The notes under the pieces are model-generated. The model was given only the letters and a program-made list of their open reading frames with translations, ran no database searches and was not told where the DNA came from. A DNA stretch of 64,000 bases from Deltaproteobacteria bacterium (lineage in GTDB: Bacteria; Desulfobacterota; JBBIRW01), in the NCBI GenBank assembly GCA_037441565.1, contig JBBIRW010000007.1:43297-107296 (forward strand). The letters run 5' to 3'. Shown here piece by piece: positions 25,400 to 51,181 of this stretch (the first letter of the stretch is position 1; every line of letters begins with the position of its first letter). Made by a program: the position numbers and the translations under genes.

Positions 25400-25479
25400 G
25401 GTGATAACCTCCCATTCTGAAATTTCCTATATATTAAATCCATCACCGGCAAAAATCTATGAGCGAAATCATATTCTGA

Positions 25480-25653
25480 TTATATTTCGCATACAAATTC
25501 GCTCTTAGGTGCACCGCATATGGGACAGACCCAGTCTTCGGGTAGTTGATCAAATGGTGTCCCTTCCCCAATATTTGATTCCGGATCTCCCTTCTCAGGA
25601 TCATAAATATATCCACAGACTGTGCACCTGTATCTTAAAAATGTATCGATCAT
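25480..25653 (-). CDS. rub: rubredoxin
   Basis: 57-aa ORF below the track cut-off: [53 protein letters not shown]. Two CxxCG knuckles and conserved YIYDPE and [11 protein letters not shown] segments. Its ATG overlaps the upstream stop (ATGA). Confidence 0.85.
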
Positions 25654-26909
25654 CCTTTTACCTTCATGTTTTTTGGAAGTATTAATCTTATCGCCCTTTC
25701 ATAAAAAATATAATCCCATGCCCAGTTTATCAAAACTATAAGCCTGTTTCTGAATCCGATAAGGTTAAAAAGATGGACACTAAGCCATATTACCCATGCA
25801 GGGAAACCAGTAAATCCAAAACCTCTCAGGTGTGCAACAGCTTTATTACGACCTATTGTAACCATCGTTCCCTTATCTATATATCTGAAAGGAAGGGGAT
25901 CATCACCACGCAACTGACGGGCTATGTTTCTTCCTGCCCAATGTCCCTGCTGAATTGCAACAGGTGCAATCATAGGGAGAACTTTTCCATCTTCCTCCAG
26001 ATAAGCAAGGTCACCTATAACATAAATCCTTTGATCTTCCATCACCTGGAGTGTGGGAAGAACAGGAACCCTTCCACCTTTAATAGTTCTCAAACCTGAT
26101 TCCTCTGCTAATCTACTTCCACGAACACCTGCTGTCCATACAACGGTTCCTGTATCAATCCTCTTTCCTTCCTTTAACAAGATATGATCTTCCGCTATCT
26201 CAGTAACAATACTGTTCAATCTCACATCAACACCCATTGATTTAAGCCTATCAGCTGTATAAAGGGATAGTTTCTCAGGAATGCCAGGGAGAATAAAACC
26301 ACTAGCCTCAATAAGGATCAGTTTTACTTCACTTATATCAATGGTTGGAAAATCCTTTACAATAGGACCCCTTATAAGCTCTGCCAGCGCTCCTGCAAAC
26401 TCCACACCTGTTGGGCCACCTCCAACTATACAGAATGTAAGCATCCTTCCTCTCTTTCCACTATCCCTTTCATGAACTGCATGTTCAAAGCATGAGAGTA
26501 TATGATTCCTGAGGTAAATGGCATCATCCAATGTCTTTAAGGGAAAACTATATTCGGCTGCACCCTTCACATTAAAAAAATTTGATATACTTCCTGAGGC
26601 GATTATCAGGTAATCATAGCCAATAGTGAAGTCATCACCAACGACCATCCTTCTCCTTATGTCAATACCCTCTACCTCCCCCATTATAAACCTTACTGAT
26701 TGAAATTTTCTCAGGATACTCCTTACAGGATAGACAATATCCTCTGGCTCAAGCTCTGAGGCAGCAATTTGATATAGAAGCGGAAAAAAGGTATGATAAT
26801 TATTCCTGTCTATAAGAACTATCTCTCCATCTATCTTGCTCAGCGATTTCAGTGCCCACAGTCCACCAAAACCAGCACCTATTATAACAATCCTTGGGGC
26901 TTCAGGCAT
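25650..26909 (-). CDS. type II NADH dehydrogenase-family flavoprotein (NDH-2-like)
   Basis: 419 aa; two dinucleotide-binding motifs ([21 protein letters not shown]) and an amphipathic C-terminal anchor. Confidence 0.8.
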
Positions 26910-27334
26910 CAGGATTCTCCTTTATATCCTTTCAAATATCTATAATCCAGACTCAAAGGATCAGGTTCAGCATAGAGATACATTAACAGACCACCCATTA
27001 TCGCAAGATTTTTTAAAAACATGATTATCTGAAGTCTCTGAGAGAAGTCTGTATGGAAAATTATTGTTGTTGGTATTAAAAAGATCAGCAGCATTAAACT
27101 TCCCCATTTTGCCTTTATTCCAAGCAGAAGGGAAAGACCTCCGATTCCCTCGAGTAAAATTGCACCTATTAAGAAAAAACCAGGGTAAGGCATTCCATAC
27201 GCCCTCATATAGTTTATCGTCCCTGATGGGTCGATTATCTTTGTTATACATGAAATGATAAAGATAATCGAAATAAATACCCTTGAAAGTAACAAAACTA
27301 CACCCTTCATGAAAACCTCCTTTTCCAGCAGCAA
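26909..27334 (-). CDS. DoxX-family membrane protein
   Basis: 141 aa with four predicted TM helices; 1-nt stop/start overlap with the NDH-2 gene. Confidence 0.65.
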   Translation of the reverse strand: MLLEKEVFMKGVVLLLSRVFISIIFIISCITKIIDPSGTINYMRAYGMPYPGFFLIGAILLEGIGGLSLLLGIKAKWGSLMLLIFLIPTTIIFHTDFSQRLQIIMFLKNLAIMGGLLMYLYAEPDPLSLDYRYLKGYKGES

Positions 27335-27426: not shown

Positions 27427-28236
27427 TTGGAGATGCGAATAGTATTTTTGCGAAGAATCTTTGCCTTCTTAGGAAAATATCTGCCCATAATAACTATTCT
27501 GTTAATCTCTTCCACATATCCGTTAAAGGCACATACAGATGCGATGGAAGAGAGGAAAGAGGTAATTATAGAGGATAGAACAGGTAAATTTATCCCTCTT
27601 GATCTGGATTTTACCGATGAGAATGGGAAGGTTGTTTCGATCAAGGAACTCTTTAAGAAGCCGGTGATACTTTCTCCTGTTTACTTCAGCTGTCCCAATG
27701 TTTGCAATCTCCTTCTTGAAGAGATTGCCCGTCTTATTGATAAGATGGAAGCAGAACCAGGAAGGGACTACTCCATAATAACATTTAGTTTTGATGAAAA
27801 TGATAAGCCGGAAAAGGCACTTGAAAAAAAGAGGATTTTTCAAAAGATCATCAAGAAAAAAATTCCTGATGATTCATGGAAATTCCTCACAGGAGATAGA
27901 GAATCAATTAAAAGACTCACCGATGCAATCGGGTTTAATTTCAAAAGAAAGGGCGATGAATTTATACATCCTGTTTCACTGGTTGTTCTTTCAAGTGACG
28001 GTAAGATTATCCGTTATGTTCCTGGAAAGGCACTCCTTCCATTCGATCTGAAAATGGCTATTGCGGAGGCATCTGAAGGAAGAACGGGGGCAACTATAAA
28101 TAAAGTGCTTCTTCTCTGCTACAGTTATGATCCCCAAGGCAGGAGATACGTGCTTAATATAACAAGGATTGGAGGTGTAATTATACTACTTTCACTTGCT
28201 GGATTCTCAATATTTCTTCTGAGAAACAGGAGTTAA
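27427..28236 (+). CDS. SCO1/SenC-family copper chaperone (thioredoxin-like, CxxxC)
   Basis: 269 aa; signal peptide, thioredoxin-like domain with CPNVC, conserved C-terminal YDPQGRRYV segment followed by a TM helix. Confidence 0.8.
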   Translation: MEMRIVFLRRIFAFLGKYLPIITILLISSTYPLKAHTDAMEERKEVIIEDRTGKFIPLDLDFTDENGKVVSIKELFKKPVILSPVYFSCPNVCNLLLEEIARLIDKMEAEPGRDYSIITFSFDENDKPEKALEKKRIFQKIIKKKIPDDSWKFLTGDRESIKRLTDAIGFNFKRKGDEFIHPVSLVVLSSDGKIIRYVPGKALLPFDLKMAIAEASEGRTGATINKVLLLCYSYDPQGRRYVLNITRIGGVIILLSLAGFSIFLLRNRS

Positions 28237-28238
28237 TT

Positions 28239-29858
28239 ATGACGCAGGGCTCTATTCTCCTGAAAACTCACACGATTAGCTTTCTTGAAGAAAAAGGGAG
28301 ATATAAAGGTATACTTTCCTGGATCATGTCAACGAACCATAAGAGGATAGGTCTACTCTACCTTCTCTCCATGCTTTCTTTCTTCATTATCGGTGTTATC
28401 CTCGGACTTCTTATGAGACTTGAGCTTATTGCGCCGGGAAGAACCATAATGGGTCCGCAGACGTATAATTCCATATTCACCCTTCATGGAGTTATAATGA
28501 TATTTTTATTTGTTATCCCTGGAATACCTGCTGCGTTCGGGAATTTCTTCCTTCCCATACACATAGGTGCAAGGGATGTATCATTCCCGAGAATAAATCT
28601 TCTGTCCTGGTACTTCTTCATAGGCGGAGCAACACTTGTTGTGATATCGCTTTTTACAGGTGGAGGGCCTATTGATACAGGATGGACGTTCTATGCTCCA
28701 TATAGCATAAGAACAGGAACAAATGTGTCCCTCGCTGTCCTGGGCGCTTTTTTAATCGGATTTTCCTCAATACTAACAGGGCTTAATTTTGTGACGACCA
28801 TACACAGATTGAGGGCACCTGGAATGGGGTGGTTCCGCATGCCACTTTTCGTATGGTCCCTTTATGCAACAGGCTGGGTCCAGCTTCTTGCAACACCTGT
28901 CGTTGGAATAACACTAATTCTTATCATATGTGAGAGATTTTTTGGTGTCGGTTTTTTCGATCCAGCAAAAGGGGGTGATCCTCTGTTGTTTCAGCATCTC
29001 TTCTGGATCTACTCACACCCTGCTGTTTACATAATGATCCTTCCTGCGATGGGTGTTATCTCAGAAATAATCCCTGTTTTCTCAAGGAAGAATATATTTG
29101 GATATAAGGCAATAGCATTCTCAAGTCTTTCCATAGCTCTCGTTGGATATCTTGTATGGGGACACCATATGTTCACAAGCGGTATGAGTGATACTGCAAA
29201 GTGGGTATTTTCCCTATTAACATTTCTCGTGGCAATACCAAGTGGAGTTAAAACATTCAACTGGGTTGCAACAATGTATGGAGGATCAATTGAAATTGCC
29301 CCTCCATTGCTATATGCGCTCTCGTTTATATTTGCATTTTCAATAGGCGGTTTAACAGGTCTTATAAATGGAGCAATTGCCACTGATATTCACATACATG
29401 ATACATATTTTGTTGTTGGTCATTTCCATTATACCATGTTTGGTGGAACTGCCTTTGCTTTTTTTGGTGCACTTCACTACTGGTTTCCTAAGATGTTTGG
29501 AAAGATGTATAGCATAAGACTTGCAAATATTGCCTGGCTCATCCTTTTTACAGGTTTTAATATTTTATACTTTCCCATGTTTATCCTTGGATGGGAGGGG
29601 ATGCCGAGGAGATATTATGACTATCTTCCAAGATTCCATATGCTTCATCTCATATCAACCATCGGCTCCTGGATCCTTGCAACTGGTCTTATCCTTATGT
29701 TTTACAATTTTCTACGTTCCCTGAAATATGGTGAAAGGGCAGAACATAACCCCTGGGGTGGAAGCACACTGGAATGGCAGATACAGTCCCCTCCACCCCC
29801 AGAGAACTTCGAGCATATACCTGCTGTCAGCGCAGGACCTTATGATTTCAAAAGGTGA
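28239..29858 (+). CDS. ctaD: cytochrome c oxidase subunit I (heme-copper oxidase, A-type)
   Basis: 539 aa; 12 TM; SHPAVYIMILP (His-Tyr region) and WGHHMF (CuB histidines). Confidence 0.9.
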   Translation: MTQGSILLKTHTISFLEEKGRYKGILSWIMSTNHKRIGLLYLLSMLSFFIIGVILGLLMRLELIAPGRTIMGPQTYNSIFTLHGVIMIFLFVIPGIPAAFGNFFLPIHIGARDVSFPRINLLSWYFFIGGATLVVISLFTGGGPIDTGWTFYAPYSIRTGTNVSLAVLGAFLIGFSSILTGLNFVTTIHRLRAPGMGWFRMPLFVWSLYATGWVQLLATPVVGITLILIICERFFGVGFFDPAKGGDPLLFQHLFWIYSHPAVYIMILPAMGVISEIIPVFSRKNIFGYKAIAFSSLSIALVGYLVWGHHMFTSGMSDTAKWVFSLLTFLVAIPSGVKTFNWVATMYGGSIEIAPPLLYALSFIFAFSIGGLTGLINGAIATDIHIHDTYFVVGHFHYTMFGGTAFAFFGALHYWFPKMFGKMYSIRLANIAWLILFTGFNILYFPMFILGWEGMPRRYYDYLPRFHMLHLISTIGSWILATGLILMFYNFLRSLKYGERAEHNPWGGSTLEWQIQSPPPPENFEHIPAVSAGPYDFKR

Positions 29859-30484
29859 TTTTCATGATTAGTATTACTTCTTTCTCTGTTGAAAAACACA
29901 CTGATTATACTGGTTCAAAGATCGGTATGTGGTTATTTCTATTCACAGAAATGCTTCTTTTTGGGGGTCTCTTTCTCATTTATTCCACATACAGGGCAAA
30001 GTATCCCATCTCCTTCCATGTTGCAGCAAAAGATCTTAACATACAGATAGGTACGCTAAATACAATACTTCTTCTTACAAGCAGTCTCACAATGGCTATA
30101 TCGATATTATCAATAAAAAATGGAAGTAGAAGAGGGTCTGCTTCCTTTCTCATGATTACTATCATTTTCGGACTTTTATTCCTTTTCAACAAATACTTTG
30201 AATGGGGAGAAAAGATTGCGCACGGTATCTATCCGGGATCAGAAGCACTCTCCGTTATAGATTCATCCATTGTCCTTTTTTACAATCTATACTTTGTTAT
30301 GACAGGGCTTCATGCCTTACATGTCCTTGCGGGGATCTTCGTGCTTTTCATAATGTTTGTTTTACTCCTTAAGAAAAATATAAACAGGCATGATTTTGTC
30401 AAACTTGAAAATACAGGGCTATACTGGCATTTTGTAGATATAATCTGGATATACCTCTTTCCCCTTTTTTATCTGATAACATGA
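29855..30484 (+). CDS. ctaE: cytochrome c oxidase subunit III
   Basis: 209 aa polytopic protein with subunit-III C-terminal motif (LYWHFVDIIWIYLF); 4-nt overlap with subunit I. Confidence 0.8.
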   Translation: MIFMISITSFSVEKHTDYTGSKIGMWLFLFTEMLLFGGLFLIYSTYRAKYPISFHVAAKDLNIQIGTLNTILLLTSSLTMAISILSIKNGSRRGSASFLMITIIFGLLFLFNKYFEWGEKIAHGIYPGSEALSVIDSSIVLFYNLYFVMTGLHALHVLAGIFVLFIMFVLLLKKNINRHDFVKLENTGLYWHFVDIIWIYLFPLFYLIT

Positions 30485-30774
30485 GGTTTGCTATGCAAAA
30501 CAAGAGAAATGAAGCAGGTTTTTTGACATATCTTTTTGTGTGGATATCTCTCATTGTTCTCACTGCATTTACAGTTACAGTCGCGGCTCTTAATCTCGGA
30601 AAAATTGCTGTTCTCACAGCGCTATCAATTGCATCATTCAAATCGTTGATGGTTCTTAACTTCTTTATGCATCTGAAATATGAGGATCGTCTATTCCATT
30701 TCATGCTCCTTCTCTCTGTTATTACCCTTTCGATAATTATAGGATTCACATTTTTTGACATCTCTTTCAGATAG
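30481..30774 (+). CDS. cytochrome c oxidase subunit IV (bacterial small subunit)
   Basis: 97 aa, three TM helices; position between subunits III and II; 4-nt overlap. Confidence 0.6.
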   Translation: MRFAMQNKRNEAGFLTYLFVWISLIVLTAFTVTVAALNLGKIAVLTALSIASFKSLMVLNFFMHLKYEDRLFHFMLLLSVITLSIIIGFTFFDISFR

Positions 30775-30782
30775 GGTTAATT

Positions 30783-31391
30783 ATGGAAAATTTTGCAGAA
30801 AGAGTAGATAACACATTCTTCTACATAGCTGGTATCTCAGTTTTTCTTCTCTTTTCCATCACAGTTTTCATGATCTACTGTCTTATCAGGTTCAACAGAA
30901 GGAGAAATCCGATGCCCGCTGATATCTCGGAAAATCTCTACCTCGAGATAGCATGGACAATTATCCCGATAATCCTTGTACTGTCCATGTTCTATTATGG
31001 ATGGACAGGATACAGGGTTCTGGGTAAAATACCCGAAGGATCGATGGATGTAAATGTTACGGCACGCATGTGGTCATGGACATTCAGGTACGAAAATGGA
31101 AAAGAAAGCGACCAACTTTATGTGCCAGCTGGCAAGCCAGTAAAATTAACGATCACATCAATGGATGTAATCCACTCCCTATATATACCCGCCCTAAGAA
31201 TAAAACAGGATGCAGTCCCCGGTATGAAAACGCACCTCTGGTTTAAAGCAGACATAAAGGGAGAATACGATATATTATGTGCTGAGTACTGTGGTCTCAG
31301 GCACTCCTATATGCTATCAAAGCTTATTGTTATGCCTGAAGAGGATTTCGTAAAATGGTATGATGGCAGGGATATTAAAAAATTAAAATAG
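30783..31391 (+). CDS. ctaC: cytochrome c oxidase subunit II (CuA, no fused cytochrome c)
   Basis: 202 aa; two TM helices plus cupredoxin domain with CuA ligands (VIHSLYIP, CAEYCGLRHSYM). Confidence 0.85.
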   Translation: MENFAERVDNTFFYIAGISVFLLFSITVFMIYCLIRFNRRRNPMPADISENLYLEIAWTIIPIILVLSMFYYGWTGYRVLGKIPEGSMDVNVTARMWSWTFRYENGKESDQLYVPAGKPVKLTITSMDVIHSLYIPALRIKQDAVPGMKTHLWFKADIKGEYDILCAEYCGLRHSYMLSKLIVMPEEDFVKWYDGRDIKKLK

Positions 31392-31394
31392 GGA

Positions 31395-32705
31395 TTGAAT
31401 TTCGATCTGCTTTTAGAATATAAAATCCTAATGATGCAGGATTATCTCGCTGTTATCAAAGCTGAACATATAGAAACGCTTCGATATATTTCGACAGTTG
31501 CATTTGTTATCTTCTACCCCTTCATATCCATTATTCTCGGATATTTGATCCTCTCCTTCCTTTTCCTTCTCAGGGGGAGGGGAACCAATCACTTCTCATC
31601 CGAACTAACTTCATCCATAATACATACCATTACAAAGAGCAAGGGTCTTCTGTTTCTTGCAGGACTGCTTCCACCACTTACTGCATCCCTCGTTTTTATT
31701 GAAACAGGTCTTATGGAGAATAAGCATCTCGTTAATCTCTCATTACTCTCCCATATCCTTCTCTTCATTTCATTCATGTTTCTTTATCTTTATCGATCAA
31801 CAATAAACTTTATTCGCACAAAACCCGCAATCACACTCCTGTCATCTATCTTTTCAATCCTGACACTGCTTTTTTCCCTTTATATCCTCTCGTCTGTTCT
31901 TTCATCAGTATCAAACAGAGAAAAGGCTAATCTATTTTTGAATGCCATTGATCCGCTTATATCATGGAATGCCGTTGTAAGATACCTGAGGATTATTGTT
32001 CTTGCGCTTTCATTTGCTTTTTCGACCTTTATAGTTTTTTTTAAATATTTTTATAAAAGTAAAACAGTGGATGATCCTTCCCTCAGAAATGCCATAATCT
32101 ATTCCTCACTCGTATTGCTTATCCTTATACCTCCGCTTTCCCTATGGTATATCTATACCCTCCCTGAGCCTTCCCTATCACCTTTTATATTTCTGTTATC
32201 AATAATCTTAACGATTGCATCCTCTATCATTATATGGCTCCTTTACAGCTGCCTTGATGGAATAAAATCGAAATACAAATATAGCATACTCATCCTTTTC
32301 ATATTGCAGTTTATGTTTATTTCAGGTATGGAATATATCGAAAGAGAAACATCACATAGAGAAAATACCATGTTATTATTATCAAAAGCACAGGTTGTTA
32401 AAGAAGGGATAAGGACTGAAAAGAAAAAAGTTGAGATGGATGAGAAGGCAACCCTTGAAAAGGGGGAGAAGGTTTTCAAAACGGTTTGCTCAGCCTGTCA
32501 CAGCTTCACTCAAAGGGTTGTTGGTCCTCCTTTAAATGCTGTTATTCCATCTTACAGGAATAAGGTTGATGAGCTAAAAAACTTCATAAAGAATCCTGTG
32601 AAAAAAGATCCCTCCTATCCTCCAATGCCGAATCTGGGACTTCCAGATGATGAAATAGAGGCTGTCTCATTATATCTCCTGAAGGAGATAGGAGAGAAAA
32701 AGTAG
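31395..32705 (+). CDS. polytopic membrane protein with C-terminal monoheme cytochrome c domain
   Basis: 436 aa; about 8-10 TM helices, then a soluble C-terminus with CSACH heme-binding motif and PPMP (likely Met ligand). Start uncertain. Confidence 0.6.
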   Translation: MNFDLLLEYKILMMQDYLAVIKAEHIETLRYISTVAFVIFYPFISIILGYLILSFLFLLRGRGTNHFSSELTSSIIHTITKSKGLLFLAGLLPPLTASLVFIETGLMENKHLVNLSLLSHILLFISFMFLYLYRSTINFIRTKPAITLLSSIFSILTLLFSLYILSSVLSSVSNREKANLFLNAIDPLISWNAVVRYLRIIVLALSFAFSTFIVFFKYFYKSKTVDDPSLRNAIIYSSLVLLILIPPLSLWYIYTLPEPSLSPFIFLLSIILTIASSIIIWLLYSCLDGIKSKYKYSILILFILQFMFISGMEYIERETSHRENTMLLLSKAQVVKEGIRTEKKKVEMDEKATLEKGEKVFKTVCSACHSFTQRVVGPPLNAVIPSYRNKVDELKNFIKNPVKKDPSYPPMPNLGLPDDEIEAVSLYLLKEIGEKK

Positions 32706-32714
32706 GAGAGGAAT

Positions 32715-33227
32715 GTGAGAAGATCCCTTGTTCTTGCAACCATTTCATGCTATGCATCGATCTTCTCCATCATATTTTTATCAATAGGCTATTATAACTA
32801 TTACCATGATGGGCCACCCATTCAGCCCATCGCCTTCAGCCATCGTATACATGTTGCAAAGGTTGGCCTTCCCTGCAACTTTTGCCATGTTTATGCTGAT
32901 AAATCAAAAAATGCCGGAATCCCTCATATCCAGAAATGCATGGATTGTCACAGGGCTGTTGCTGTAGAAAAGCCTGAAATAAAGAAACTTACTTCATACT
33001 GGGAACAGCGTAAACCCATAGAATGGATCAAGATTTACAAACTTCCCGATCATGTTTATTTTTCACATAAGAGACATATAAAGAAGGGGGTAGAATGTTC
33101 ACAGTGCCATGGTGAAGTACAGGTCATGGACAGGGTAAGAAGGGTAAGAACTTTAAAGATGGGGTGGTGTGTGAGATGTCACAGGGTAAATGATGCACCA
33201 ACTGATTGTCTCACATGCCATAAATGA
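32715..33227 (+). CDS. actA: Alternative Complex III subunit ActA (pentaheme cytochrome c)
   Basis: 170 aa; N-terminal TM helix and five CxxCH motifs (CNFCH, CMDCH, CSQCH, CVRCH, CLTCH). Confidence 0.8.
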   Translation: MRRSLVLATISCYASIFSIIFLSIGYYNYYHDGPPIQPIAFSHRIHVAKVGLPCNFCHVYADKSKNAGIPHIQKCMDCHRAVAVEKPEIKKLTSYWEQRKPIEWIKIYKLPDHVYFSHKRHIKKGVECSQCHGEVQVMDRVRRVRTLKMGWCVRCHRVNDAPTDCLTCHK

Positions 33228-33239
33228 ACGGAGTGTTAT

Positions 33240-36056
33240 ATGAATAGAAGAAACTTCATGAAGTTCCTTGGCTTCATTACAGGATCAACATTTCTTTCAT
33301 CATGTGGCATTGACAAAGGTTTAAGAAAAATCATATCTTATGCCATACCACCAGAAAAGGAGATCATACCTGGTGAGCCATTATTTTTTAACACAACCTG
33401 CACAGAATGCCCTGCCCTCTGCGGGATTCAGGTTAAGGCATATGAAAAGATCTTTGATACGGAAAGGGGTATCTACCCTGTAAAGCTTGAAGGTATACCG
33501 GATCATCCCATCAATTATGGCACACTATGTATAAGGGGTCAGGCATCCATAACACGACTCTACAATCCCCATCGTATAAAAGATCCCTTAATTAAGGAAA
33601 GGGATGGAGTTTTCAGATCGATAAGCTGGGATCAAGCATTCCAGACCATAATTTCAGAAATCGAAAAACATAAAGCCGAGAAAAGATATAACTTCTTCAT
33701 TTCATCAAGAACAACGGGTTCCCTCTCATTACTTATTGATGAATTCTGTCACGAATTCAATATAAAGAGACTTCCGGAATTTGAAATATATAATTATTCT
33801 GCAATCAGAAAAGCAAACTCATTCCTTTTCGGAAAATATTCAATACCTCATTACAACATAAAGGACGCTGATTTTCTTTTAACAATGGGTGCTGATATTT
33901 TTGAGACTTTTATCAGTCCTGTTTCACACGCAGTTCAATTCTCTATTGCACGGAAAAACAATAATCTAAAGTGGTTTCATGTTGAACCACATCTTTCATT
34001 AACAGGAATATGTTCTGATAAAAGATTTACAATCAATCCTGGAACAGAAATATATCTTCTTATTTATATCCTGACTTCTATTCAAAAAAGAAAAATAAGC
34101 AGCAACATTCCTGCTTCAGTTGGTCAATTAATTCCCTCTCTGCCTTTGGATATTCTGAAAGAAAAAACAGGGCTAAAAGAGGAAGAAATCCTTCTCATAA
34201 GGGATGCTTATCTTAATTCAAAAAGACCCCTCATTATAACAGGTGGCGTCTCAACCAGAAGTGGCAGTGGATTCGAAGTGGCTGTTCTCTCAGGATTAAT
34301 CAATTGGGCTTCCGGATCTATCGGTAGCCTTGTTGATTTCAGCAGAGAAGAGAACTACTTAAGGGTAGGAACAATAGAGGAATTTGTTAATTTCCTTAAA
34401 ACAATTGATGAGAATAACACAGGTTTGCTCTTTCTCCTTAAAACAGATCCTGTTTCCATCTTTCCTCAGCATCTTGGAGTTAAAGAAAAACTCATCAGGG
34501 CGAGATTTAAGGTCTCCCTTTCGGACTCATTCAATGAGACAACAAAAATTTGTGATCTTATCCTCCCCCTTTCTCACTCTCTTGAATCGTGGGGAGATGC
34601 AAATCCAAGAAGAGGACTTGTTAATCTCATCCAGCCTGCAACAAAAACAATTTTCAATACAAAATCGCATGGTGACATAATTATCGAGATTATGAAAAGA
34701 AAGGGAAAAGTTGTTTCTGAAGATTTTAAATCCTTTGTTATGAGTAATTATCAGAAAAGATATGGAAAAGATTCATTAAATATGTTTATTGAAAAAGGCT
34801 TTCATGAAGAAAACCCCTCCCCTGTAAGGGTATCATTCAACGAAGAGAATGCGCAACTGTTCTTGAGGAAGCTCAAATATCCTGAAGCTATGAAAACTCC
34901 CCTTCTTATTCTTTCTCCTTCGTTGAGGTTTTTTGATGGAAGATCTTTTGATCTTGAACTCTTAAAAGAAATCCCGGATCCTTTAAGCACGATATCCTAT
35001 GGGAGCTGGATCTCCCTTTCAGAGGAGACAGCAAAAAAATTGAACATCTCAGAAAGGGATGAGCTCGAAATTACTAAGGACCGATGGTCTATAAGAGTTC
35101 CTGCAAAGATTCAGAAAGGTATAGGAAAGGATATATTTATCGTCCAGATCGGAGGACCGATAAATTATAGTGGCATGACCGATCCCAGAAGCGGTGAAAT
35201 CCTCTCATACATTGAAGGTATAAATATAAGAAAAACGGGAAAGAATGTTTCCATACCAATCCTTTCAGGCTCAATGTCACAGGAAGGAAGGGGTATAATA
35301 CCTTATCCCATACATAGAACTGAAAATAATAAAAAACACAAAGAGAGTTTATATCCTGAACATAAACATGAAAATTACCGATGGGCTATGACTATAGATC
35401 TCGATCTCTGTATAGGATGCTCGGCATGTGTTGCTGCATGTTATATTGAGAACAATGTTCCTATTGTAGGGATTGATGAACATCTCAAAGGAAGAGAGAT
35501 GTCCTGGATCAGGGTCGAGCCATTTTATGATGAAAAGGATGGAATAAGATTCCTGCTCATGCTATGCCAGCAATGTGATTATGCTCCGTGTGAACCTGTC
35601 TGCCCTGTTTATGCAACATATCATAATCCTGAAGGAATAAATGCACAGGTCTATAACAGATGTGTTGGAACAAGGTACTGCTCAAATAACTGTCCGTATA
35701 AGGTCAGAAGATTTAACTGGTATCCTCATGAATGGGAATTCCCAAGGGACAGGATGTTAAATCCTGAGGTATCAGTAAGACAGGCAGGCGTAATGGAAAA
35801 GTGCACATTCTGCATACAACGTATAAGAAGAGCACATGATATCGCAAAGGATGAAGGCAGGTCCATAAGGGATGGTGAAGTAATGCCTGCATGTGCCCAG
35901 ACATGCCCCACCCGTGCAATTACATTTGGTAATATTCTTGATAAGAATTCATCTGTATATAAGCTTTCAAAGTCCGACCGTTCATATCGCATCTTTGAGC
36001 AACTCGGAACAGAACCATCGATATATTATCTTGGAAAGAGGAGAGGAGATGAATAA
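33240..36056 (+). CDS. actB: Alternative Complex III subunit ActB (molybdopterin-oxidoreductase-like + FeS domains)
   Basis: 938 aa; twin-arginine signal (RRNFMKF), large molybdopterin-like domain, C-terminal 4Fe-4S ferredoxin domains (CIGCSACVAAC, CQQCDYAPCEPVCP). Confidence 0.85.
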   Translation: MNRRNFMKFLGFITGSTFLSSCGIDKGLRKIISYAIPPEKEIIPGEPLFFNTTCTECPALCGIQVKAYEKIFDTERGIYPVKLEGIPDHPINYGTLCIRGQASITRLYNPHRIKDPLIKERDGVFRSISWDQAFQTIISEIEKHKAEKRYNFFISSRTTGSLSLLIDEFCHEFNIKRLPEFEIYNYSAIRKANSFLFGKYSIPHYNIKDADFLLTMGADIFETFISPVSHAVQFSIARKNNNLKWFHVEPHLSLTGICSDKRFTINPGTEIYLLIYILTSIQKRKISSNIPASVGQLIPSLPLDILKEKTGLKEEEILLIRDAYLNSKRPLIITGGVSTRSGSGFEVAVLSGLINWASGSIGSLVDFSREENYLRVGTIEEFVNFLKTIDENNTGLLFLLKTDPVSIFPQHLGVKEKLIRARFKVSLSDSFNETTKICDLILPLSHSLESWGDANPRRGLVNLIQPATKTIFNTKSHGDIIIEIMKRKGKVVSEDFKSFVMSNYQKRYGKDSLNMFIEKGFHEENPSPVRVSFNEENAQLFLRKLKYPEAMKTPLLILSPSLRFFDGRSFDLELLKEIPDPLSTISYGSWISLSEETAKKLNISERDELEITKDRWSIRVPAKIQKGIGKDIFIVQIGGPINYSGMTDPRSGEILSYIEGINIRKTGKNVSIPILSGSMSQEGRGIIPYPIHRTENNKKHKESLYPEHKHENYRWAMTIDLDLCIGCSACVAACYIENNVPIVGIDEHLKGREMSWIRVEPFYDEKDGIRFLLMLCQQCDYAPCEPVCPVYATYHNPEGINAQVYNRCVGTRYCSNNCPYKVRRFNWYPHEWEFPRDRMLNPEVSVRQAGVMEKCTFCIQRIRRAHDIAKDEGRSIRDGEVMPACAQTCPTRAITFGNILDKNSSVYKLSKSDRSYRIFEQLGTEPSIYYLGKRRGDE

Positions 36057-37362
36057 GGCGATTTCCAAAGCCATTGAGTTTCGTTACCGGATTGAAAAGG
36101 ATGTTCTCGCTGCAATGAAGAAACCCCATATCCAGTACTGGATCTTCCTTTTTATCTCAGTCATCTTGTTTGTAACTGGCATGTCCCTCTGGTACTACCA
36201 GATAAAAACAGGGATGGGTGTCTCCGGTAAAACGCATCCTGTCGGATGGTACATGTATATAACAAATTTTGTATTCTGGGTTGGAATCGCCCATTCAGGA
36301 ACACTTATATCAGCTGTTCTTTTTCTATTCCGGGCAGGATTCAGGAGCAGTTTCAACAGATCTGCAGAAGCAATGACCGTCTTTGCCATTATGACTGCAG
36401 GGCTCTTCCCCATAATACATCTTGGAAGACCATGGCTTTTCTACTGGTTGCTTCCATACCCGAATGAGAGGCTACTCTGGGTTAACTTCAGATCACCGCT
36501 TATATGGGATGTCTTCGCTGTTGGGACATATTTTACGGTAAGTCTTATCTTCTTTTATGTTGGTATGATTCCCGATCTTGCCATTGCAAGGAGATATGCA
36601 ACAGGATGGAAGAGGCGCCTGTACTCCTTCCTTTCACTCGGATGGCAGGGAACACCGGATCAATGGAGGCACTATAACAGACTATATATGTTTCTTGCAT
36701 CATTTGCAACTCCGCTTGTTGTTTCAGTCCACTCTGTTGTTTCATGGGATTTCGCTATGAGCATTATCCCAGGATGGCATACAACCATATTTGCCCCATA
36801 TTTTGTTGCAGGTGCTATATTTTCTGGAACAGCGATGGTAATAACGCTTGTTGTTCCAATGAGAAAGTTTTTTTCCCTTGAAAAATATATAACTTTAGAT
36901 CACTTTGATAGCATCGCTAAAATATTACTTCTTACATCTCTCATAGTGAGCTATTCATATATCGTGGAATTCTCCATGGCATTTTATGGTGGAAATATAT
37001 TCGAAATGGAAGTATTCAGGTACAGGGCATTTGGTGATTTCTGGATATTCTTCGCCATAATGATTATATGCAACTCCATTATTCCCCTCTTTCTATTCAT
37101 AAGAAAGCTAAGAAGAAATATAAAATTTCTTTTCATATCATCCCTTTTTGTTAATGTGGGTATGTGGATGGAAAGATTCGTAATCATAGTTACTTCCCTT
37201 TCCAGAGACTTTGATCCTTACGCATGGGGACTTCCATCATTCAGCACTGTTGCTATAGGAATCACGCTTGGCAGTTTCGGAATGTTTTTCATGCTTTTTC
37301 TTATATTTGTAAAGGTCCTTCCAATCCTTTCCATTACAGAATTAAAAGAGGTTCACGAATGA
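36049..37362 (+). CDS. actC: Alternative Complex III subunit ActC (NrfD/PsrC-like membrane subunit)
   Basis: Polytopic NrfD-like protein; start set at internal ATG 36049 (MNKAISKA), 8-nt overlap with actB; the track ORF begins at 35893 inside actB. Confidence 0.8.
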   Translation: MNKAISKAIEFRYRIEKDVLAAMKKPHIQYWIFLFISVILFVTGMSLWYYQIKTGMGVSGKTHPVGWYMYITNFVFWVGIAHSGTLISAVLFLFRAGFRSSFNRSAEAMTVFAIMTAGLFPIIHLGRPWLFYWLLPYPNERLLWVNFRSPLIWDVFAVGTYFTVSLIFFYVGMIPDLAIARRYATGWKRRLYSFLSLGWQGTPDQWRHYNRLYMFLASFATPLVVSVHSVVSWDFAMSIIPGWHTTIFAPYFVAGAIFSGTAMVITLVVPMRKFFSLEKYITLDHFDSIAKILLLTSLIVSYSYIVEFSMAFYGGNIFEMEVFRYRAFGDFWIFFAIMIICNSIIPLFLFIRKLRRNIKFLFISSLFVNVGMWMERFVIIVTSLSRDFDPYAWGLPSFSTVAIGITLGSFGMFFMLFLIFVKVLPILSITELKEVHE

Positions 37363-37814
37363 AAAAGGAATATCTGTTTGAAGACAAACACGAATTTGTC
37401 GAAAAATTGAAAGATCTTTTAAAAAAGGGGGTGCCTGTTGATCGAATGCAAATATACCTCCCTTTCCCTGTCGAAGAAGTAGAAGAGATTCTTGGAAGAC
37501 CGGTTAGTAAACTGAATTTCATTACCCTTCTCGGTGCAATCACTGGAACTATTACGGGCTTCGGATTCACAGCTTATACAGTTTTAAGCTGGCCTCTTAT
37601 AACGGGAGGAAAGCCACTGATATCCATCCCTGCATTTGTTATTATAGCATTTGAATTGACAATTCTTTTTGGATCGATCACATCGTTTCTCGGATTCCTT
37701 TCACTCTCACGCCTCCCTGATATTAGAAGGATTCTGAATCCCATGGAATTTGACAACAGATTTGCAATAGTGATAGATGATGGAGAAGATGATGGAAAAA
37801 GGGATGAGGATTAA
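37359..37814 (+). CDS. actD: Alternative Complex III subunit ActD-like small membrane protein
   Basis: About 151 aa from internal ATG 37359 (MKKEYLFEDK), ATGA overlap with actC; one or two TM helices; position matches ActD. Confidence 0.6.
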   Translation: MKKEYLFEDKHEFVEKLKDLLKKGVPVDRMQIYLPFPVEEVEEILGRPVSKLNFITLLGAITGTITGFGFTAYTVLSWPLITGGKPLISIPAFVIIAFELTILFGSITSFLGFLSLSRLPDIRRILNPMEFDNRFAIVIDDGEDDGKRDED

Positions 37815-38811
37815 CCATTACTTCTTATATCTCTTTATTGGTGGATTTTTTATTGTTGCTGTTGAGTTTTTTGCAGGAATAACAAAGGGTTCACTTCTCT
37901 TCACTCTTTCGTATTGGATTGCCATCACTCATGGCTGCATTGCACTTGTTACAGCAGCTAATATTGCAAAGGCTAAATGGATAACTCCACTAAAGAGATA
38001 CCTTCTTTCCGTTTACCCGTTGCTATTGCTTCACTCAATCCTTTTTCTTTTTGTTACTTATGAGCTGGATATATATCCATGGGTTAAAAGTGAAGGATTA
38101 TGGTTAAACAGGCCATTCTTTATAGCAAGAAACTTCTTCCTGCTCTTTCTTTCCTTTTTATCTGCACGAAAATTCTCCAAGGAATCATTAATTGATAGTG
38201 AAAGAAAAAACATCTATGGCTCAATTTATATCGCATTCTTTGTTGCATCACAATCAATGATTGCATTCGACTGGATAATGTCTCTCGAATATCCCTGGTA
38301 CAGCACACTCTTTGGAGGTTATTTTTTCATTGAATCCATATACTCCGGTATTGCAATTTCAGGGATTGTATGTCTATTTCTTATGAGAAAAACTGGGAGC
38401 CAAATCAGTGAAGACCTGGTCAAGACTTTGAGGGATATTGCTACACTAATTTTCGGGTTCAGCTTACTCTGGGCAGGGCTTTTCTATGCGCAGTTCCTTG
38501 TTATCTGGTATGGAAACATTCCTGAGGAGGTAAGCTTTCTGTTTGTAAGGACTAAATTATCACCTTACCGGGAAATCTCGCTTGTTATACTCCCCTCACT
38601 ATTCTTCTTCCCCTTTCTAACACTCCTTTCAAGAAAGACAAAAACGATCCCATTGATCGTCTCAATTATATCGGTATCGATACTTATGGGTATATTTCTT
38701 GAAAGACTGCTATTCCTCCTTCCATCCGTTAAGCTAAATCCTGTAAAGGTAATCTCTCAATCAATCATTATGGCAGCACTGATTATTCTAACGATCAAGA
38801 GAAATAATTAG
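37777..38811 (+). CDS. actF: Alternative Complex III subunit ActF-like polytopic membrane protein
   Basis: 344 aa, about 9 TM helices, immediately after actD; assigned by position and topology only. Confidence 0.55.
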   Translation: MMEKMMEKGMRINHYFLYLFIGGFFIVAVEFFAGITKGSLLFTLSYWIAITHGCIALVTAANIAKAKWITPLKRYLLSVYPLLLLHSILFLFVTYELDIYPWVKSEGLWLNRPFFIARNFFLLFLSFLSARKFSKESLIDSERKNIYGSIYIAFFVASQSMIAFDWIMSLEYPWYSTLFGGYFFIESIYSGIAISGIVCLFLMRKTGSQISEDLVKTLRDIATLIFGFSLLWAGLFYAQFLVIWYGNIPEEVSFLFVRTKLSPYREISLVILPSLFFFPFLTLLSRKTKTIPLIVSIISVSILMGIFLERLLFLLPSVKLNPVKVISQSIIMAALIILTIKRNN

Positions 38812-38824: not shown

Positions 38825-40708
38825 TTATGTCCCTTTCACAACGAGAATGGGAATATCACCTATATCATGTTGAACAGCAGAAACTGTTGAACCGTATATC
38901 CAGTCTTTTATGTGCTTGTGACCGTGACTCCCAAGAACAAGGAGATCCAGATTCTCTTCTTTTGCTATTTTTACAACCCCTTTTGCTGCATTTCCAAATC
39001 CTATTCGGAAACTTGCCCTTATTCCCTGTGCCCTGATCTTTTCTGAAAGTTTTATTAGGTAATCCTCGTCCCCTGTTCTCTCCCTATCCTCCGCTGTTCC
39101 GCCCCACACCTGAGCAGTTGCACTCTCAACAATATGAATGAGAACAATCTCTGCATCGTATCTCAGTGCAAGGGCAAGTGCATGTTTGAGTATCTTTTGG
39201 TCCGTTTCCTTCACCTCAAGAGCAACCCCTATCTTCCCATATCCAGTGTCCTCCTGAATGGATGGTATCACGGGTTCCGGTACAGAAGTTGGTCTCCTTT
39301 CTAATAATTTCTTGATAAATGGTCCAAATCCCATATACCCTAATAATAGCATCAAAAACGCACCGATTGGAATTACTATAAAATCAACCCACATAGCTGT
39401 CATCCTCCATTCAGACACCGTCTCCCAGACAAGCCAGAGGTTAAGACCTATGATAAAAAGTGCAACAAGCCATGAGAGGATTCTTACCCATAAAGGGTTG
39501 GCAAATTTACCCATCCATTCACGATCACTTGTAAACTGGATAAGGGGGACAATTGCAAAGGGAAGCTGCAGAGATAGAATTACCTGGCTCAGTATGAGAA
39601 GCCTGTATGTACCATGGCTTCCGCTTATTGCAATAACAATAACTGCGGGGATGACAGCAAGTAATCGAGAAATGAGCCTTCTTGCCCATGGCTGAATCTT
39701 TATCCGAATAAATCCCTCCATTACAATCTGCCCTGCTAGTGTTCCTGTGAGTGTTGAAGATTGACCTGCAGCAAGAAGTGCAACAGCAAAGGCAGTGGAG
39801 GCGAGACCTGTTCCCAGCAGTGGTGAGAGAAGTTCGTGCGCCTGCTGAATTTCAACCACCTGAATGCCTCGAGAATAAAAAACAGAAGATGAGAGAACAA
39901 GTATTGCTGAATTCACAAAGAAAGCGGCATTGAGGGCAATAACAGTATCTATAAGATTAAAGCGCGCTGCCGCCTGGATACCCTTGTCCGTTCGCTCAAC
40001 TGCCCTGCTCTGAACAAGCGCTGAATGAAGGTAAAGGTTGTGCGGCATAACAGTTGCTCCCAGCATGCCAAGTGCAACGTAAAGGCTATCACTATCAATT
40101 GTGGGAATAAAACCACCCATAATTGATCTGAAATCAGGTTTAGCAAGAAAGATCTCAACTACAAAACAACAACCTACAATAAATATCAAACCGAGGATTA
40201 TTCCTTCAAATTTGCGAATACCATATCGTTGAATCAGAAGCAGAAGCATTGTATCAAGAGCTGTTAAACTTACACCGATTATAAGTGGAATTCCAAATAA
40301 GAGATTTAAACCTATCGCTGTTCCAAGGACTTCAGCGAGATCGCATGCGGCTATCGCAAGCTCACAGATGATCCACAGAGGATAGTATACAAAAGGCGGA
40401 TATGCTTCACGACATGCCTGAGCGAGATCGCATCTTGCAACAAGACCCAGACGGGCGGAAAGCGTTTGCAGGAGAACAGCCATCAGATTGCTCGCAAGTA
40501 GAACCCATATGAGCCTGTATCCAAACCTTGCTCCCCCTTCGAGATCCGTCGCCCAGTTACCCGGATCCATGTATCCCACAGAAACAAGATATGCAGGACC
40601 AAGGAAAGCAAAGAGGCGCTTCCACCATTTCCAGTAGTGTGGAATCTTCACTGATTCGTAAATTTCAGGAAGGGATACGGTTTCTGTCTTATTGAATTTC
40701 GACCACAT
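38825..40708 (-). CDS. mntH: NRAMP-family divalent metal transporter with C-terminal UspA domain
   Basis: 627 aa; NRAMP motifs (DPGNWATDLEGG, GATVMPHNLYLHS), then a cytoplasmic universal-stress-protein domain (LVLGSHGH...IPILVV). Confidence 0.8.
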   Translation of the reverse strand: MWSKFNKTETVSLPEIYESVKIPHYWKWWKRLFAFLGPAYLVSVGYMDPGNWATDLEGGARFGYRLIWVLLASNLMAVLLQTLSARLGLVARCDLAQACREAYPPFVYYPLWIICELAIAACDLAEVLGTAIGLNLLFGIPLIIGVSLTALDTMLLLLIQRYGIRKFEGIILGLIFIVGCCFVVEIFLAKPDFRSIMGGFIPTIDSDSLYVALGMLGATVMPHNLYLHSALVQSRAVERTDKGIQAAARFNLIDTVIALNAAFFVNSAILVLSSSVFYSRGIQVVEIQQAHELLSPLLGTGLASTAFAVALLAAGQSSTLTGTLAGQIVMEGFIRIKIQPWARRLISRLLAVIPAVIVIAISGSHGTYRLLILSQVILSLQLPFAIVPLIQFTSDREWMGKFANPLWVRILSWLVALFIIGLNLWLVWETVSEWRMTAMWVDFIVIPIGAFLMLLLGYMGFGPFIKKLLERRPTSVPEPVIPSIQEDTGYGKIGVALEVKETDQKILKHALALALRYDAEIVLIHIVESATAQVWGGTAEDRERTGDEDYLIKLSEKIRAQGIRASFRIGFGNAAKGVVKIAKEENLDLLVLGSHGHKHIKDWIYGSTVSAVQHDIGDIPILVVKGT

Positions 40709-40734
40709 TACTACTCATCATTCTATAAATGTTT

Positions 40735-42048
40735 CTAAACATCAAGAATAACACGCGCTGTCCATCCATTATTATCTTTCCTCACCTCAAGCATGTGCAG
40801 GGTCACTGCCTTCACATCAAGATGAAGTATATGTTTTTCCGGATCGATCCTCTCCCCTGCTGCCTTCATCCTCGCCAGCCAGTTATCACCCTTCCTTCCG
40901 ATTTTCACATTAAACTCTCCAAAGATCAGTTTTTCTGTATCTTTGAAAAAGATTATTTCCTGAAGAAGATTAAAAAGGAGAAGATCCAGTTCTTCAGCCT
41001 CAATCTCTATCAGCCTTCTTTCTTTAAGATCGATTGTGCCTGTTTCAAGTATCATGATATTTGTCGTTGCAAGCGCAGAGGAAATAAAAAGTTCCTCAAT
41101 CGTATCACCCTTTGCCTCAAATGCTACATCGGCTGTAACAAAATCTTCAAGAAATCTGTACTTAAATCTCAATGTCATGTTCTCTAACTGGGAAATAACC
41201 CGATCCTTTATCTCATAAGCTCGATCGCCAATAAATACAAGACGCGTTTCTTCCGATTCAAATTCTTCAAAATCCCATCGATCAGAGACATAATTGAACA
41301 GGTAGGAGCCATCGGGAAATTTTACAAATCCCTTTGCCCTGTATATCTTTCCAGAAAAATCATTTAGCATCTCTTCAAATCTTTCCCTCTGGATTGTCCC
41401 TTTTGTACAGAAAGTAAAGTAATCCATGCTATGTGAGTGATGAACAGCATTTGATAAATATCTTTCTACTCCCATCCCGGATAAAAGCTCTGTATCTATA
41501 TTGCAGAATGAAGTTCTGAAAAGGGTCGCCCTTTTGTTAATCTCTTTTACCTTCTCCTCAACCCCTAAGAGATCTTCTTCATCGACCAGGTCTATCTTGT
41601 TTATCAGAATTACATCGGCTGATTCAATCTGTATCCTCCCTGTATAGCCTGTTTCCGGAAATCTAATCATGGCATCAGCATCAACAACAGTAACTACTGT
41701 ATCAAGCTTCACCATTGTTAGTGCCTCACCTATAATCTCTATGAGTGAATCTGGCTCTGCAAGACCTGTGGTTTCAACAAAAATTATATCAGGCCTTATT
41801 TCATTTACTATCTCCTCAATTGCCGCCTCAAATTCTCCCGATAGTGAACAACATACGCATCCTCCGGCAAGTTCAGCCATCCTTATATTTTTCCCCTCAA
41901 GAACCTTGCCATCTATGGGTATCTCTCCAAATTCGTTTACCACAATGGCGATCTTTTTCCTTGAATCCCTTATGATATTCCTCAGAAGGGTTGTCTTACC
42001 ACTGCCGAGATATCCTGTTATCAAAATAAGAGGTGTTTTTGTGATCAT
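40735..42048 (-). CDS. COG0523/CobW-family GTPase (putative metallochaperone) with extended C-terminus
   Basis: 437 aa; P-loop GYLGSGKTT, GCVCC metal-binding motif, CobW_C-like region plus extra C-terminal sequence. Confidence 0.8.
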   Translation of the reverse strand: MITKTPLILITGYLGSGKTTLLRNIIRDSRKKIAIVVNEFGEIPIDGKVLEGKNIRMAELAGGCVCCSLSGEFEAAIEEIVNEIRPDIIFVETTGLAEPDSLIEIIGEALTMVKLDTVVTVVDADAMIRFPETGYTGRIQIESADVILINKIDLVDEEDLLGVEEKVKEINKRATLFRTSFCNIDTELLSGMGVERYLSNAVHHSHSMDYFTFCTKGTIQRERFEEMLNDFSGKIYRAKGFVKFPDGSYLFNYVSDRWDFEEFESEETRLVFIGDRAYEIKDRVISQLENMTLRFKYRFLEDFVTADVAFEAKGDTIEELFISSALATTNIMILETGTIDLKERRLIEIEAEELDLLLFNLLQEIIFFKDTEKLIFGEFNVKIGRKGDNWLARMKAAGERIDPEKHILHLDVKAVTLHMLEVRKDNNGWTARVILDV

Positions 42049-51179: not shown

Positions 51180-51181
51180 AT

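Follow-up and report, generated by a model that had tools for sequence, protein, structure and literature searches.

An ActE-less Alternative Complex III encoded beside an A2-type cytochrome c oxidase and a polytopic monoheme cytochrome c in a Deltaproteobacteria bacterium

In the present study, we analysed a 64,000-nt stretch of DNA from Deltaproteobacteria bacterium (assembly GCA_037441565.1, contig JBBIRW010000007.1, positions 43,297 to 107,296; hereafter the window), in which eleven plus-strand genes at 27427-38811 encode a menaquinol:O2 electron-transfer chain, probably in one operon. The locus combines an A2-type cytochrome c oxidase with an Alternative Complex III (ACIII) that has no canonical ActE subunit, and the gene between the two sets encodes a polytopic membrane protein with a single heme c, which we named Mcc. 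The Mcc proteins form a previously unnamed family of about 600 clusters at 50% identity, and the protein is best read as a fixed-stalk cytochrome c linking ACIII to the oxidase. The whole explanation, in which Mcc serves as the ActE stand-in and the ACIII-oxidase adaptor of an Mcc-type ACIII clade, appears to us likely, with appreciable room for doubt.

Composition of the eleven-gene cluster

The initial annotation had described the locus as a contiguous, probably co-transcribed module of an A-type oxidase and an ACIII that forms a complete quinol-to-O2 chain. All eleven open reading frames (ORFs) were present at 27427-38811, and the gene identities were upheld throughout. The features of the cluster were as follows.

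27427..28236, plus strand: sco, SCO1/SenC copper chaperone with a CPNVC motif (PF02630, E 5.9e-10; the NCBI gene call starts 6 nt later)
28239..29858, plus strand: coxI, heme-copper oxidase subunit I, A2-type (TIGR02891, 685.5 bits vs cutoff 670.75; WIYSHPAVY helix-VI motif)
29855..30484, plus strand: coxIII (PF00510, E 4.5e-19)
30481..30774, plus strand: coxIV, caa3-type subunit IV family (TIGR02229, 61.3 bits vs cutoff 37.25; PF03626)
30783..31391, plus strand: coxII, 202 aa, with CuA ligands and no CxxCH (TIGR02866, 185.3 bits vs cutoff 147.7)
31431..32705, plus strand: mcc, polytopic membrane monoheme cytochrome c, 424/436 aa (alternative TTG start at 31395)
32487..32501, plus strand: CSACH heme c attachment motif of Mcc (C353, C356 and H357 invariant)
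32715..33227, plus strand: actA, pentaheme cytochrome c, 170 aa, with an N-terminal transmembrane (TM) anchor (five CxxCH; 8k9e_A 1.4e-39, 6f0k_A 5.2e-39)
33240..36056, plus strand: actB, fusion of B1 (molybdopterin-like) and B2 (4-cluster ferredoxin) with a Tat signal, RRNF (6lod_B 3e-102, 6f0k_B 1.1e-95)
33399..33530, plus strand: FS0-type Cys motif in ActB1, C54-x2-C57-x3-C61...C97 (ActB residues 54-97)
36049..37362, plus strand: actC, NrfD-like quinol-binding membrane subunit (6btm_C 1.7e-133, 6f0k_C 9e-133; PF03916)
37359..37814, plus strand: actD, 151 aa (PF11821, E 4.9e-36, 124.4 bits vs cutoff 25.7)
37792..38811, plus strand: actF, second NrfD-like membrane subunit, 339/344 aa (alternative start at 37777; 6btm_F 4.9e-25, 6f0k_F 3.9e-19)

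The intergenic distances from sco to actF were +2, -4, -4, +8, +3/+39, +9, +12, -8, -4 and -23 nt, where the coxII-mcc distance was +3 nt with the TTG start of mcc and +39 nt with the ATG start. The short gaps that had been reported were present, at up to 12 nt, and fitted co-transcription, but the proposed overlap range of 4-8 nt did not hold, since actD and actF overlap by 23 nt. Both flanks of the cluster were occupied by minus-strand genes (DoxX at 26909-27334 and an Nramp-Usp gene at 38825-40708). The same eleven genes were found in kept order in the nearest species-level relative, a metagenome-assembled genome (MAG) labelled uncultured Thermodesulfobacteriota bacterium (L012), and in two Acidobacteriota MAGs (L041 and L045), indicating that the arrangement is conserved and not accidental.

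The oxidase genes encode a CtaD/CoxA-equivalog subunit I, a CuA-bearing subunit II and subunits III and IV, which identified an A-type oxidase. The CuA ligand pattern in CoxII was H..CxEyC..H..M, within the motif DVIHS...CAEYCGLRHSYM. In the Pereira-Santana-Teixeira classification, the A2 subtype is marked by a helix-VI Tyr-Ser (YSHPxV) that replaces the D-channel glutamate (GHPEV). The helix-VI motif WIYSHPAVY at residue 260 of CoxI assigned the enzyme to this subtype. A fused heme c domain, whose absence had already been noted, was not found on the 202-aa CoxII, which has no CxxCH and is thus not of the caa3 type. The window oxidase is an A2-type aa3 (or ao3/oo3) enzyme.

The act genes matched ACIII at every level. 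In the PDB search, ActA, ActB, ActC and ActF matched the four cryo-electron microscopy structures of ACIII with E values from 1e-25 to 1e-133. ActB, which contained PF00384, PF04879 and Fer4 domains, matched ACIII B subunits at 3e-102 to 2e-84 vs 3.5e-20 for PsrB, and its match to 6lod_B spanned residues 28-934. ActF had no Pfam match, yet it matched the ActF chains of all four structures, and comparison of its profile with that of ActC yielded an hhalign probability of 98.5%, indicating a paralogous NrfD-like pair. The ActC/ActF pair was accompanied by the pentaheme anchored ActA, the Tat-exported ActB fusion and ActD (DUF3341/PF11821), as expected for ACIII. ActD (PF11821) and ActF are specific to ACIII and absent from Qrc. 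The other identity considered for these genes was a Qrc, Psr or Nrf-type complex, and NCBIfam gave it some ground, as the top names were QrcA for ActA, QrcB/C for ActB and DsrP/QrcD for ActC. However, these scores were far under their cutoffs (101.6 vs 180, 223.4 vs 400, 163.9 vs 440 and 25.8 vs 570), so no Qrc equivalog was identified. No ACIII-named NCBIfam model was obtained for ActA-D, and nothing whatever matched ActD or ActF. In addition, ActC matched the ACIII ActC at 1.7e-133 with no Psr/Nrf membrane-subunit chain listed at E<=1e-3, and both ActD and ActF, which Qrc does not have, were present. The PDB and NCBIfam scores ruled out a Psr, Nrf or Qrc identity, whose probability we consider negligible; the genes at 36049-38811, for which the initial annotation had allowed a Psr/Nrf-type alternative, were thus confirmed as ACIII genes.

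ActE was looked for across the window. No ActE-like ORF was found between actD and actF, as had been claimed, and none was found in the 64 kb as a whole. The only genuine CxxCH proteins in this sequence were Mcc, ActA and a Sco-CoxII-cytochrome c fusion at 47151-48926 on the minus strand, so Mcc is the sole monoheme c protein of the operon. In agreement with this, the loci L001-L003, which are identical to the window, and all other loci in which Mcc comes first had no ORF that was labelled by an ActE query taken from another locus (L004). Compared with the Chloroflexus ActA (8k9e_A), about 39 residues were missing between heme motifs 4 and 5 of the window ActA, a gap that could be a lost ActE docking surface.

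The Mcc family and the Mcc-type ACIII clade

In Mcc, an N-terminal domain with eight TM helices is joined by a stalk of about 40 residues to a class-I cytochrome c domain in the periplasm. Only class-I cytochrome c models at the C-terminus matched the protein, with the Pfam cytochrome c match at aa 353-429 of the 436-aa form only. A word-indexed homologue search gave 13 matches, and the AlphaFold2 model based on 13 homologues contained eight TM helices with a predicted local distance difference test score (pLDDT) of 77.5 and a predicted TM-score (pTM) of 0.69. In this model, the last TM helix runs on as a long periplasmic helix that bears the cytochrome c domain. In line with the positive-inside rule, those loops between the modelled helices that are rich in Arg and Lys fell on the side predicted to be cytoplasmic, and the heme domain lay on the outer side. 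A hidden Markov model search with the membrane domain alone retrieved 606 clusters at 50% identity, 452 of them at E<=1e-10. Nearly all family members were 420-470 aa long, and 122 of the 123 full-length representatives had one or two CxxCH motifs. Between the end of the membrane-domain profile and CxxCH, the median distance was 34 residues, with a 5th-95th percentile range of 32-40 (122 representatives). This conserved linker length points to a fixed stalk, not a floppy tether. Cytochrome c_y (6xkw_Y) was a weak PDB match to Mcc and offers an analogy as a tethered periplasmic class-I heme c. Cytochrome c_y and Paracoccus c552 are membrane-anchored cytochromes that connect complex III with oxidases and shuttle electrons to CuA; they are held by one TM helix and a flexible linker, in contrast to the 8-TM domain and the length-conserved linker of Mcc. 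In Rhodothermus, ActE sits at the distal end of the ActA heme wire (PMC5928083), and a fixed stalk would be consistent with Mcc reaching the same end.

The membrane domain of Mcc has no Pfam or NCBIfam model. For nine family members, no Pfam match was obtained at E<=10, bd families included, and comparison with the ActF and ActC profiles gave hhalign probabilities of 1.6% and 0.2%, respectively. In the structural model, the domain resembles cytochrome bd and NrfD in its fold, with no sequence homology detected. Gly, Pro and Ser made up most of the conserved positions, which otherwise comprised Q91, Y121, W166 and residue 13 (His, Gln or Asn). Y121 is placed close to the predicted cytoplasmic end of TM3, and the other three are predicted to be near the periplasmic side. 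The membrane domain contained no invariant His, Met, Glu or Cys and no conserved heme or metal ligands. The single Cys in the membrane domain of the window protein was not conserved in the family. The heme domain was generic class-I, with Aquifex c555 and a Rhodothermus marinus cytochrome c as its best PDB matches.

Several other identities for Mcc were tried and rejected. Its heme domain could not be assigned to a relocated ActE or to a detached CoxII heme c domain, given only generic class-I similarity of 5-24 bits to these. The N-terminal domain was not a divergent ActF or ActC, based on the hhalign probabilities above. A role as heme A synthase or assembly factor, considered because mcc follows ctaB in Ignavibacteria, was set aside for want of a Pfam match and of a conserved His. 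His13 as a heme ligand was rejected as weak, as Gln or Asn takes its place in many members; its spacing to the conserved Pro also differs from that of CydA His19. A cysteine-lined channel, of the kind proposed for Pelobacter carbinolicus ActE, did not fit the non-conserved Cys residues of the family.

The gene neighbourhoods of Mcc were compared across about 60 loci (about 20 kb each, with flanks of up to 10 kb), which we annotated with the window proteins and with an ActE query from an ActD-ActE fusion. Two architectures were observed, and Mcc adjoined act or cox genes across these loci. Type 1 is the six-gene unit Mcc-actA-actB-actC-actD-actF, with an mcc-actA gap of 9-40 nt, and ActE was found in none of these loci. 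It occurred in at least 25 species-representative genomes, with MAG labels of Thermodesulfobacteriota, Calditrichaceae, Deferrimicrobiaceae, 'Deltaproteobacteria', Acidobacteriota, Desulfuromonadales and Limnocylindria. The genes sco-coxI-III-IV-II lay directly upstream of the unit in the window, in L012 and in Acidobacteriota, while in Calditrichaceae the cox genes were upstream of mcc with 5 kb between them (ctaB and 2-oxoacid dehydrogenase E1/E2). Many Type 1 loci had no cox gene within the flanks, and some had a NorB-like gene nearby. Among the Deferrimicrobiaceae-like loci (L005 and L010 from JGI 3300056880, L026 and L040), Mcc-actABCDF stood without an oxidase nearby; a NorB-like gene and a cytochrome c partner were on the opposite strand, and 5-heme and 9-heme cytochromes were near. 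These loci suggest that oxygen is not the only acceptor supplied by Mcc-type ACIII.

Type 2 has the order actB-actC-actD::actE-actF-cytochrome c (about 310 aa)-sco-coxI-III-IV-coxII-ctaB-Mcc and occurred in Ignavibacteria, Melioribacter, Bacteroidota, Kapabacteria and Kryptoniota. The ActD-ActE fusion clusters of Ignavibacteria and Melioribacter (PMC3534657) share with the window an Mcc-family gene, the sco-coxI-III-IV-coxII genes and a CoxII without heme c, but they differ in that Mcc comes last, after ctaB, and in the fusion and the ~310-aa cytochrome c. The ActC identities were 59-100% within Type 1, 67-99% within Type 2 and only 49-56% between the types, so the ranges did not overlap. This clean split indicates that the window ACIII belongs to a coherent clade, which carries an approximately 8-TM monoheme c gene directly upstream of actA, has actABCDF without ActE and is marked by short ActA, ActD and ActF. 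Judging from the sequence comparison, the Type 1 (Mcc-type) clade appears to have spread horizontally.

A second feature of the clade was found in ActB. The four Cys of the FS0 motif (CTECPALCG...LCIRGQ) were kept in the window ActB and in all 25 Type 1 ActB proteins (among them those of L005, L010, L013-L017, L019, L023, L024, L026, L031, L035, L037, L041, L043, L045, L052, L055 and L061). This motif is the [4Fe-4S] motif of true formate dehydrogenases and molybdoenzymes, and the ActB proteins of R. marinus and Roseiflexus had no Cys at its position. The B1 domain of R. marinus ActB is cofactor-free (PMC5928083). The Mcc-type clade may, on the strength of these retained residues, hold a fifth Fe-S cluster in ActB1.

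The synteny changed how three points of the initial annotation are to be read. The membrane cytochrome c gene, which was taken there for a bystander, opens the six-gene unit Mcc-actABCDF and is conserved in this position. The placement of the oxidase genes ahead of the act genes was correct for the window, but it is not a peculiarity, as the order recurs in the clade (L013-15, L037, L041 and L045). The proposal of an incomplete or newly non-canonical subunit set was not sustained either, since the unit defines an ActE-less ACIII clade across several phyla and is already annotated in P. carbinolicus. In that organism (now Syntrophotalea), Pcar_2549-2554 are actE-actA-actB-actC-actD-actF (Aklujkar 2012, PMC3543383), and Pcar_2549 is annotated as 'actE, membrane protein and cytochrome c subunit, 1 heme', with eight predicted TM helices vs one elsewhere (PMC3543383). 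The window resembled this cluster in the six-gene order, in the 5-heme ActA and in having no ActE between actD and actF, and a Desulfuromonadales MAG (L061) had an Mcc-family gene at exactly the Pcar_2549 position. It differed in that the P. carbinolicus cox genes are about 20 genes off (Pcar_2529), whereas those of the window are within the same co-directional cluster, and in that the channel proposed for Pcar_2549 is not a feature of the Mcc family. An ActE-less ACIII with a polytopic cytochrome c is thus already known at the level of annotation and has never been characterised. The loss of ActE has precedents: the subunit is dispensable and can be deleted in Flavobacterium johnsoniae (PMC8552683), and, according to Refojo 2010 as cited in PMC8552683, it is missing from some clusters and in P. 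carbinolicus is possibly compensated by another monoheme c protein. ActG is likewise missing from many ACIII clusters in the literature, and ActH is specific to Rhodothermus.

Proposed electron path and competing explanations

We propose that quinol would be oxidised at ActC of ACIII, and that electrons would then pass through the ActB2 iron-sulfur clusters to the five-heme wire of ActA, from there to the single heme c of Mcc and finally to CuA of the heme-c-less CoxII in the A2-type oxidase. The 8-TM part of Mcc would be a cofactor-less scaffold, and the stalk would hold the periplasmic cytochrome c domain in place. Mcc would thereby cover the job of the lipoprotein ActE of Rhodothermus, together with the role of the Rhodothermus CoxII heme c domain or of the sixth ActA heme of Flavobacterium. 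We infer this path and the possible formation of a supercomplex from the gene content, and likewise the position of Mcc beside ActA or CuA.

The two structurally characterised ACIII-oxidase systems framed this proposal. The R. marinus ACIII-caa3 system (6f0k; Sousa 2018, PMC5928083) has a homologous 5-heme ActA, fused ActB, ActC, ActD and ActF, and its A2-type oxidase is encoded beside the act genes, as in the window. There, ACIII passes electrons directly to the oxidase (PMC5928083). However, R. marinus uses the lipoprotein ActE and the CoxII heme c, and the window has neither, with Mcc as its only monoheme c; in addition, R. marinus B1 is without the FS0 cysteines that ActB1 of the window has, and its oxidase genes follow the act genes, whereas they precede them in the window. 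The F. johnsoniae ACIII-aa3 system (6btm; Lorencik 2021, PMC8552683) resembled the window in a CoxII without heme c, and its ActC and ActF were the best PDB matches of the window proteins. ActE is dispensable there for electron transfer to aa3 (PMC8552683). In contrast to the window ActA of 170 aa and five hemes, the F. johnsoniae ActA (444 aa) carries a sixth heme on a mobile N-terminal domain, and the window has its extra heme on a separate 8-TM protein. With no ActE, no CoxII heme c and no sixth ActA heme, it must be one polytopic cytochrome c that bridges the gap in the window.

Some results weigh against Mcc as the ActE stand-in and adaptor. The scores of its heme domain against ActE and CoxII heme c domains were only 5-24 bits, and Pcar_2549 was likened to Mcc by position, annotation and topology, not by sequence. 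Type 2 clusters carry ActE, as the ActD-ActE fusion, and an extra monoheme c besides Mcc, and a few loci had cox(-ctaB)-Mcc without act genes within the flank (L049 and L060). The absence of ActE holds for the 64 kb of the window, and the gene could lie elsewhere in the genome. No heme A synthase was seen in the 64 kb, and the placement of Mcc beside ActA or CuA is part of the model and not of the data. Because Mcc also occurs with ActE-containing ACIII and beside oxidase genes, it is not strictly an ActE replacement or orthologue and is better viewed as an adaptor cytochrome between ACIII and oxidase.

The same occurrences can be read as placing Mcc on the oxidase side, as a subunit that substitutes in trans for the CoxII heme c domain while the ActE-less ACIII donates electrons as to any external acceptor. 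In about 20 loci of the Ignavibacteria/Bacteroidota group, Mcc followed sco-coxI-III-IV-coxII-ctaB with a CoxII without heme c although ActE was present, and Mcc was also found in cox-only loci (L049, L060, L036 and L039). The paper describing the Type 2 cluster of Melioribacter counts all seven genes after ACIII, the Mcc position included, as 'cytochrome c oxidase genes' (PMC3534657). An oxidase subunit, however, would hardly be expected in the at least 11 Mcc-actABCDF loci without cox genes within the flanks (L005, L010, L016, L017, L019, L023, L024, L026, L031, L043 and L061), or beside the heme-c CoxII of the Acidobacteriota loci L041 and L045; moreover, mcc lay just 9-40 nt from actA throughout the clade. 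We therefore regard this explanation as unlikely. A related question concerns transcription, for the cox genes and the Mcc-act genes may be adjacent units that are transcribed separately, with an internal promoter before mcc. The autonomy of the six-gene unit in many genomes, the 5 kb of unrelated genes between coxII and mcc in Calditrichaceae and the 39-nt coxII-mcc gap with the ATG start are consistent with two units. On the other side, no terminator-like site was found in the coxII-mcc gap, and the tight junction was kept in L012 and in the Acidobacteriota loci. Promoter-like sites numbered 35 vs 37.7 +/- 6.1 in shuffled controls, and neither these nor the terminator-like sites in the operon gaps were in excess over the controls. 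We consider separate transcription rather improbable, and the single operon remains the arrangement that we infer.

A further explanation assigns a catalytic function to the 8-TM domain of Mcc, as a quinone-interacting CydB/NrfD-like module that opens a second quinol route directly to the heme c and CuA. OR-C members of the cytochrome bd superfamily combine eight TM helices with a periplasmic heme c region at the C-terminus (Murali et al. 2021 preprint), an architecture shared with Mcc. The conserved polar and aromatic positions (H/Q/N13, Q91, W166 and Y121) and the cox-plus-Mcc loci without act genes could also be taken in its favour. The comparison of Mcc with OR-C, CydA and CydB nevertheless failed in sequence and in the heme b/d ligands, so that only the fold is similar and Mcc is not assigned to the bd superfamily. 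No sequence homology to the ActF or ActC profiles or to any Pfam family was detected; the conserved residues were mostly Gly, Pro and Ser, and His, Met, Glu and Cys were never invariant. Folds made of two four-helix bundles can converge, and the Mcc model is a prediction with a pLDDT of 77.5. Based on these results, a quinone module with its own route to CuA is very unlikely. The broader proposal that the domain is a heme-less fold relative of cytochrome bd/OR-C subunits, recruited as a quinone-interacting scaffold that bears a c-type heme, seems to us quite doubtful. If it were true, Mcc could pass electrons from quinol straight to the aa3 oxidase, and the cox-Mcc loci without act genes would be accounted for; alternatively, Mcc could add a third quinone site to ACIII. 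Together with the FS0 cysteines, this would make Mcc-type ACIII mechanistically distinct and more than a subunit swap, as it would have one additional Fe-S cluster and one additional membrane module. Taken together, the evidence favours Mcc as the fixed-stalk adaptor between ACIII and oxidase.

Genomic surroundings and biological significance

A second heme-copper oxidase locus was found in the window at 44689-50150 on the minus strand, with the following genes.

49737-50150, minus strand: Rrf2 regulator
48940-49683, minus strand: coxIII
47151-48926, minus strand: Sco-CoxII-cytochrome c triple fusion, 591 aa, carrying a heme c domain
45557-47134, minus strand: coxI with a YGHPAV motif
44689-45717, minus strand: ctaB, heme o synthase

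Upstream of the eleven-gene cluster, the minus strand at 23533-27334 encodes DoxX, an NDH-2-like flavoprotein (PF07992 and NDH2_C) whose gene overlaps that of a 57-aa rubredoxin, and a hemerythrin, a rubrerythrin/ferritin-like protein and an iron superoxide dismutase. This oxygen-stress neighbourhood was conserved in the related MAG (L008/L012). Anaerobe-type energy genes were located at 10099-15628 and 50326-56370. They included ADP-forming acetyl-CoA synthetase, a rubredoxin-reductase-like flavoprotein, a tungsten-type aldehyde:ferredoxin oxidoreductase (AOR) with ferredoxin, a multi-subunit 2-oxoacid:ferredoxin oxidoreductase (PFOR) and a NuoE/NuoF-like module with 2Fe-2S/4Fe-4S proteins. 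The oxygen-stress neighbours and the anaerobe-type metabolism (AOR and PFOR) point to a role in microaerobic respiration or O2 removal, and the chain probably serves one of these in an otherwise anaerobic-looking organism.

Downstream, the genes at 38825-44692 encode the Nramp-Usp fusion (a Mn2+-type transporter), a 437-aa fusion of a CobW-family GTPase with archease, RtcB and RtcA, which may together form a cluster for metal supply and RNA repair. Such a joining of metallochaperone and archease is unusual. The minus-strand gene at 6759-8441 encodes a 560-aa protein in which a PAS domain and a eukaryotic-type Ser/Thr kinase domain are combined with a weak receiver domain. Rfam and tRNA scans of the window gave no matches.

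The principal alternative to the cytochrome bc1 complex is ACIII, and the way in which it hands electrons over to oxidases is debated. Flavobacterium can do without ActE, Rhodothermus possibly cannot, and the window locus is a clean natural case of ACIII-oxidase coupling without ActE. As the subunit set itself is neither incomplete nor new, the interest that remains lies in the uncharacterised Mcc family with its predicted bd/NrfD-like fold and in the retention of FS0 in ActB1. The Mcc-type clade occurs widely among anaerobic and microaerophilic lineages, and none of its complexes is known to have been purified or imaged. Structural work on an Mcc-type complex would bear on how ACIII and oxidase are coupled through a different adaptor, on whether ActB1 holds an Fe-S cluster and on the role of the bd/NrfD-like domain.

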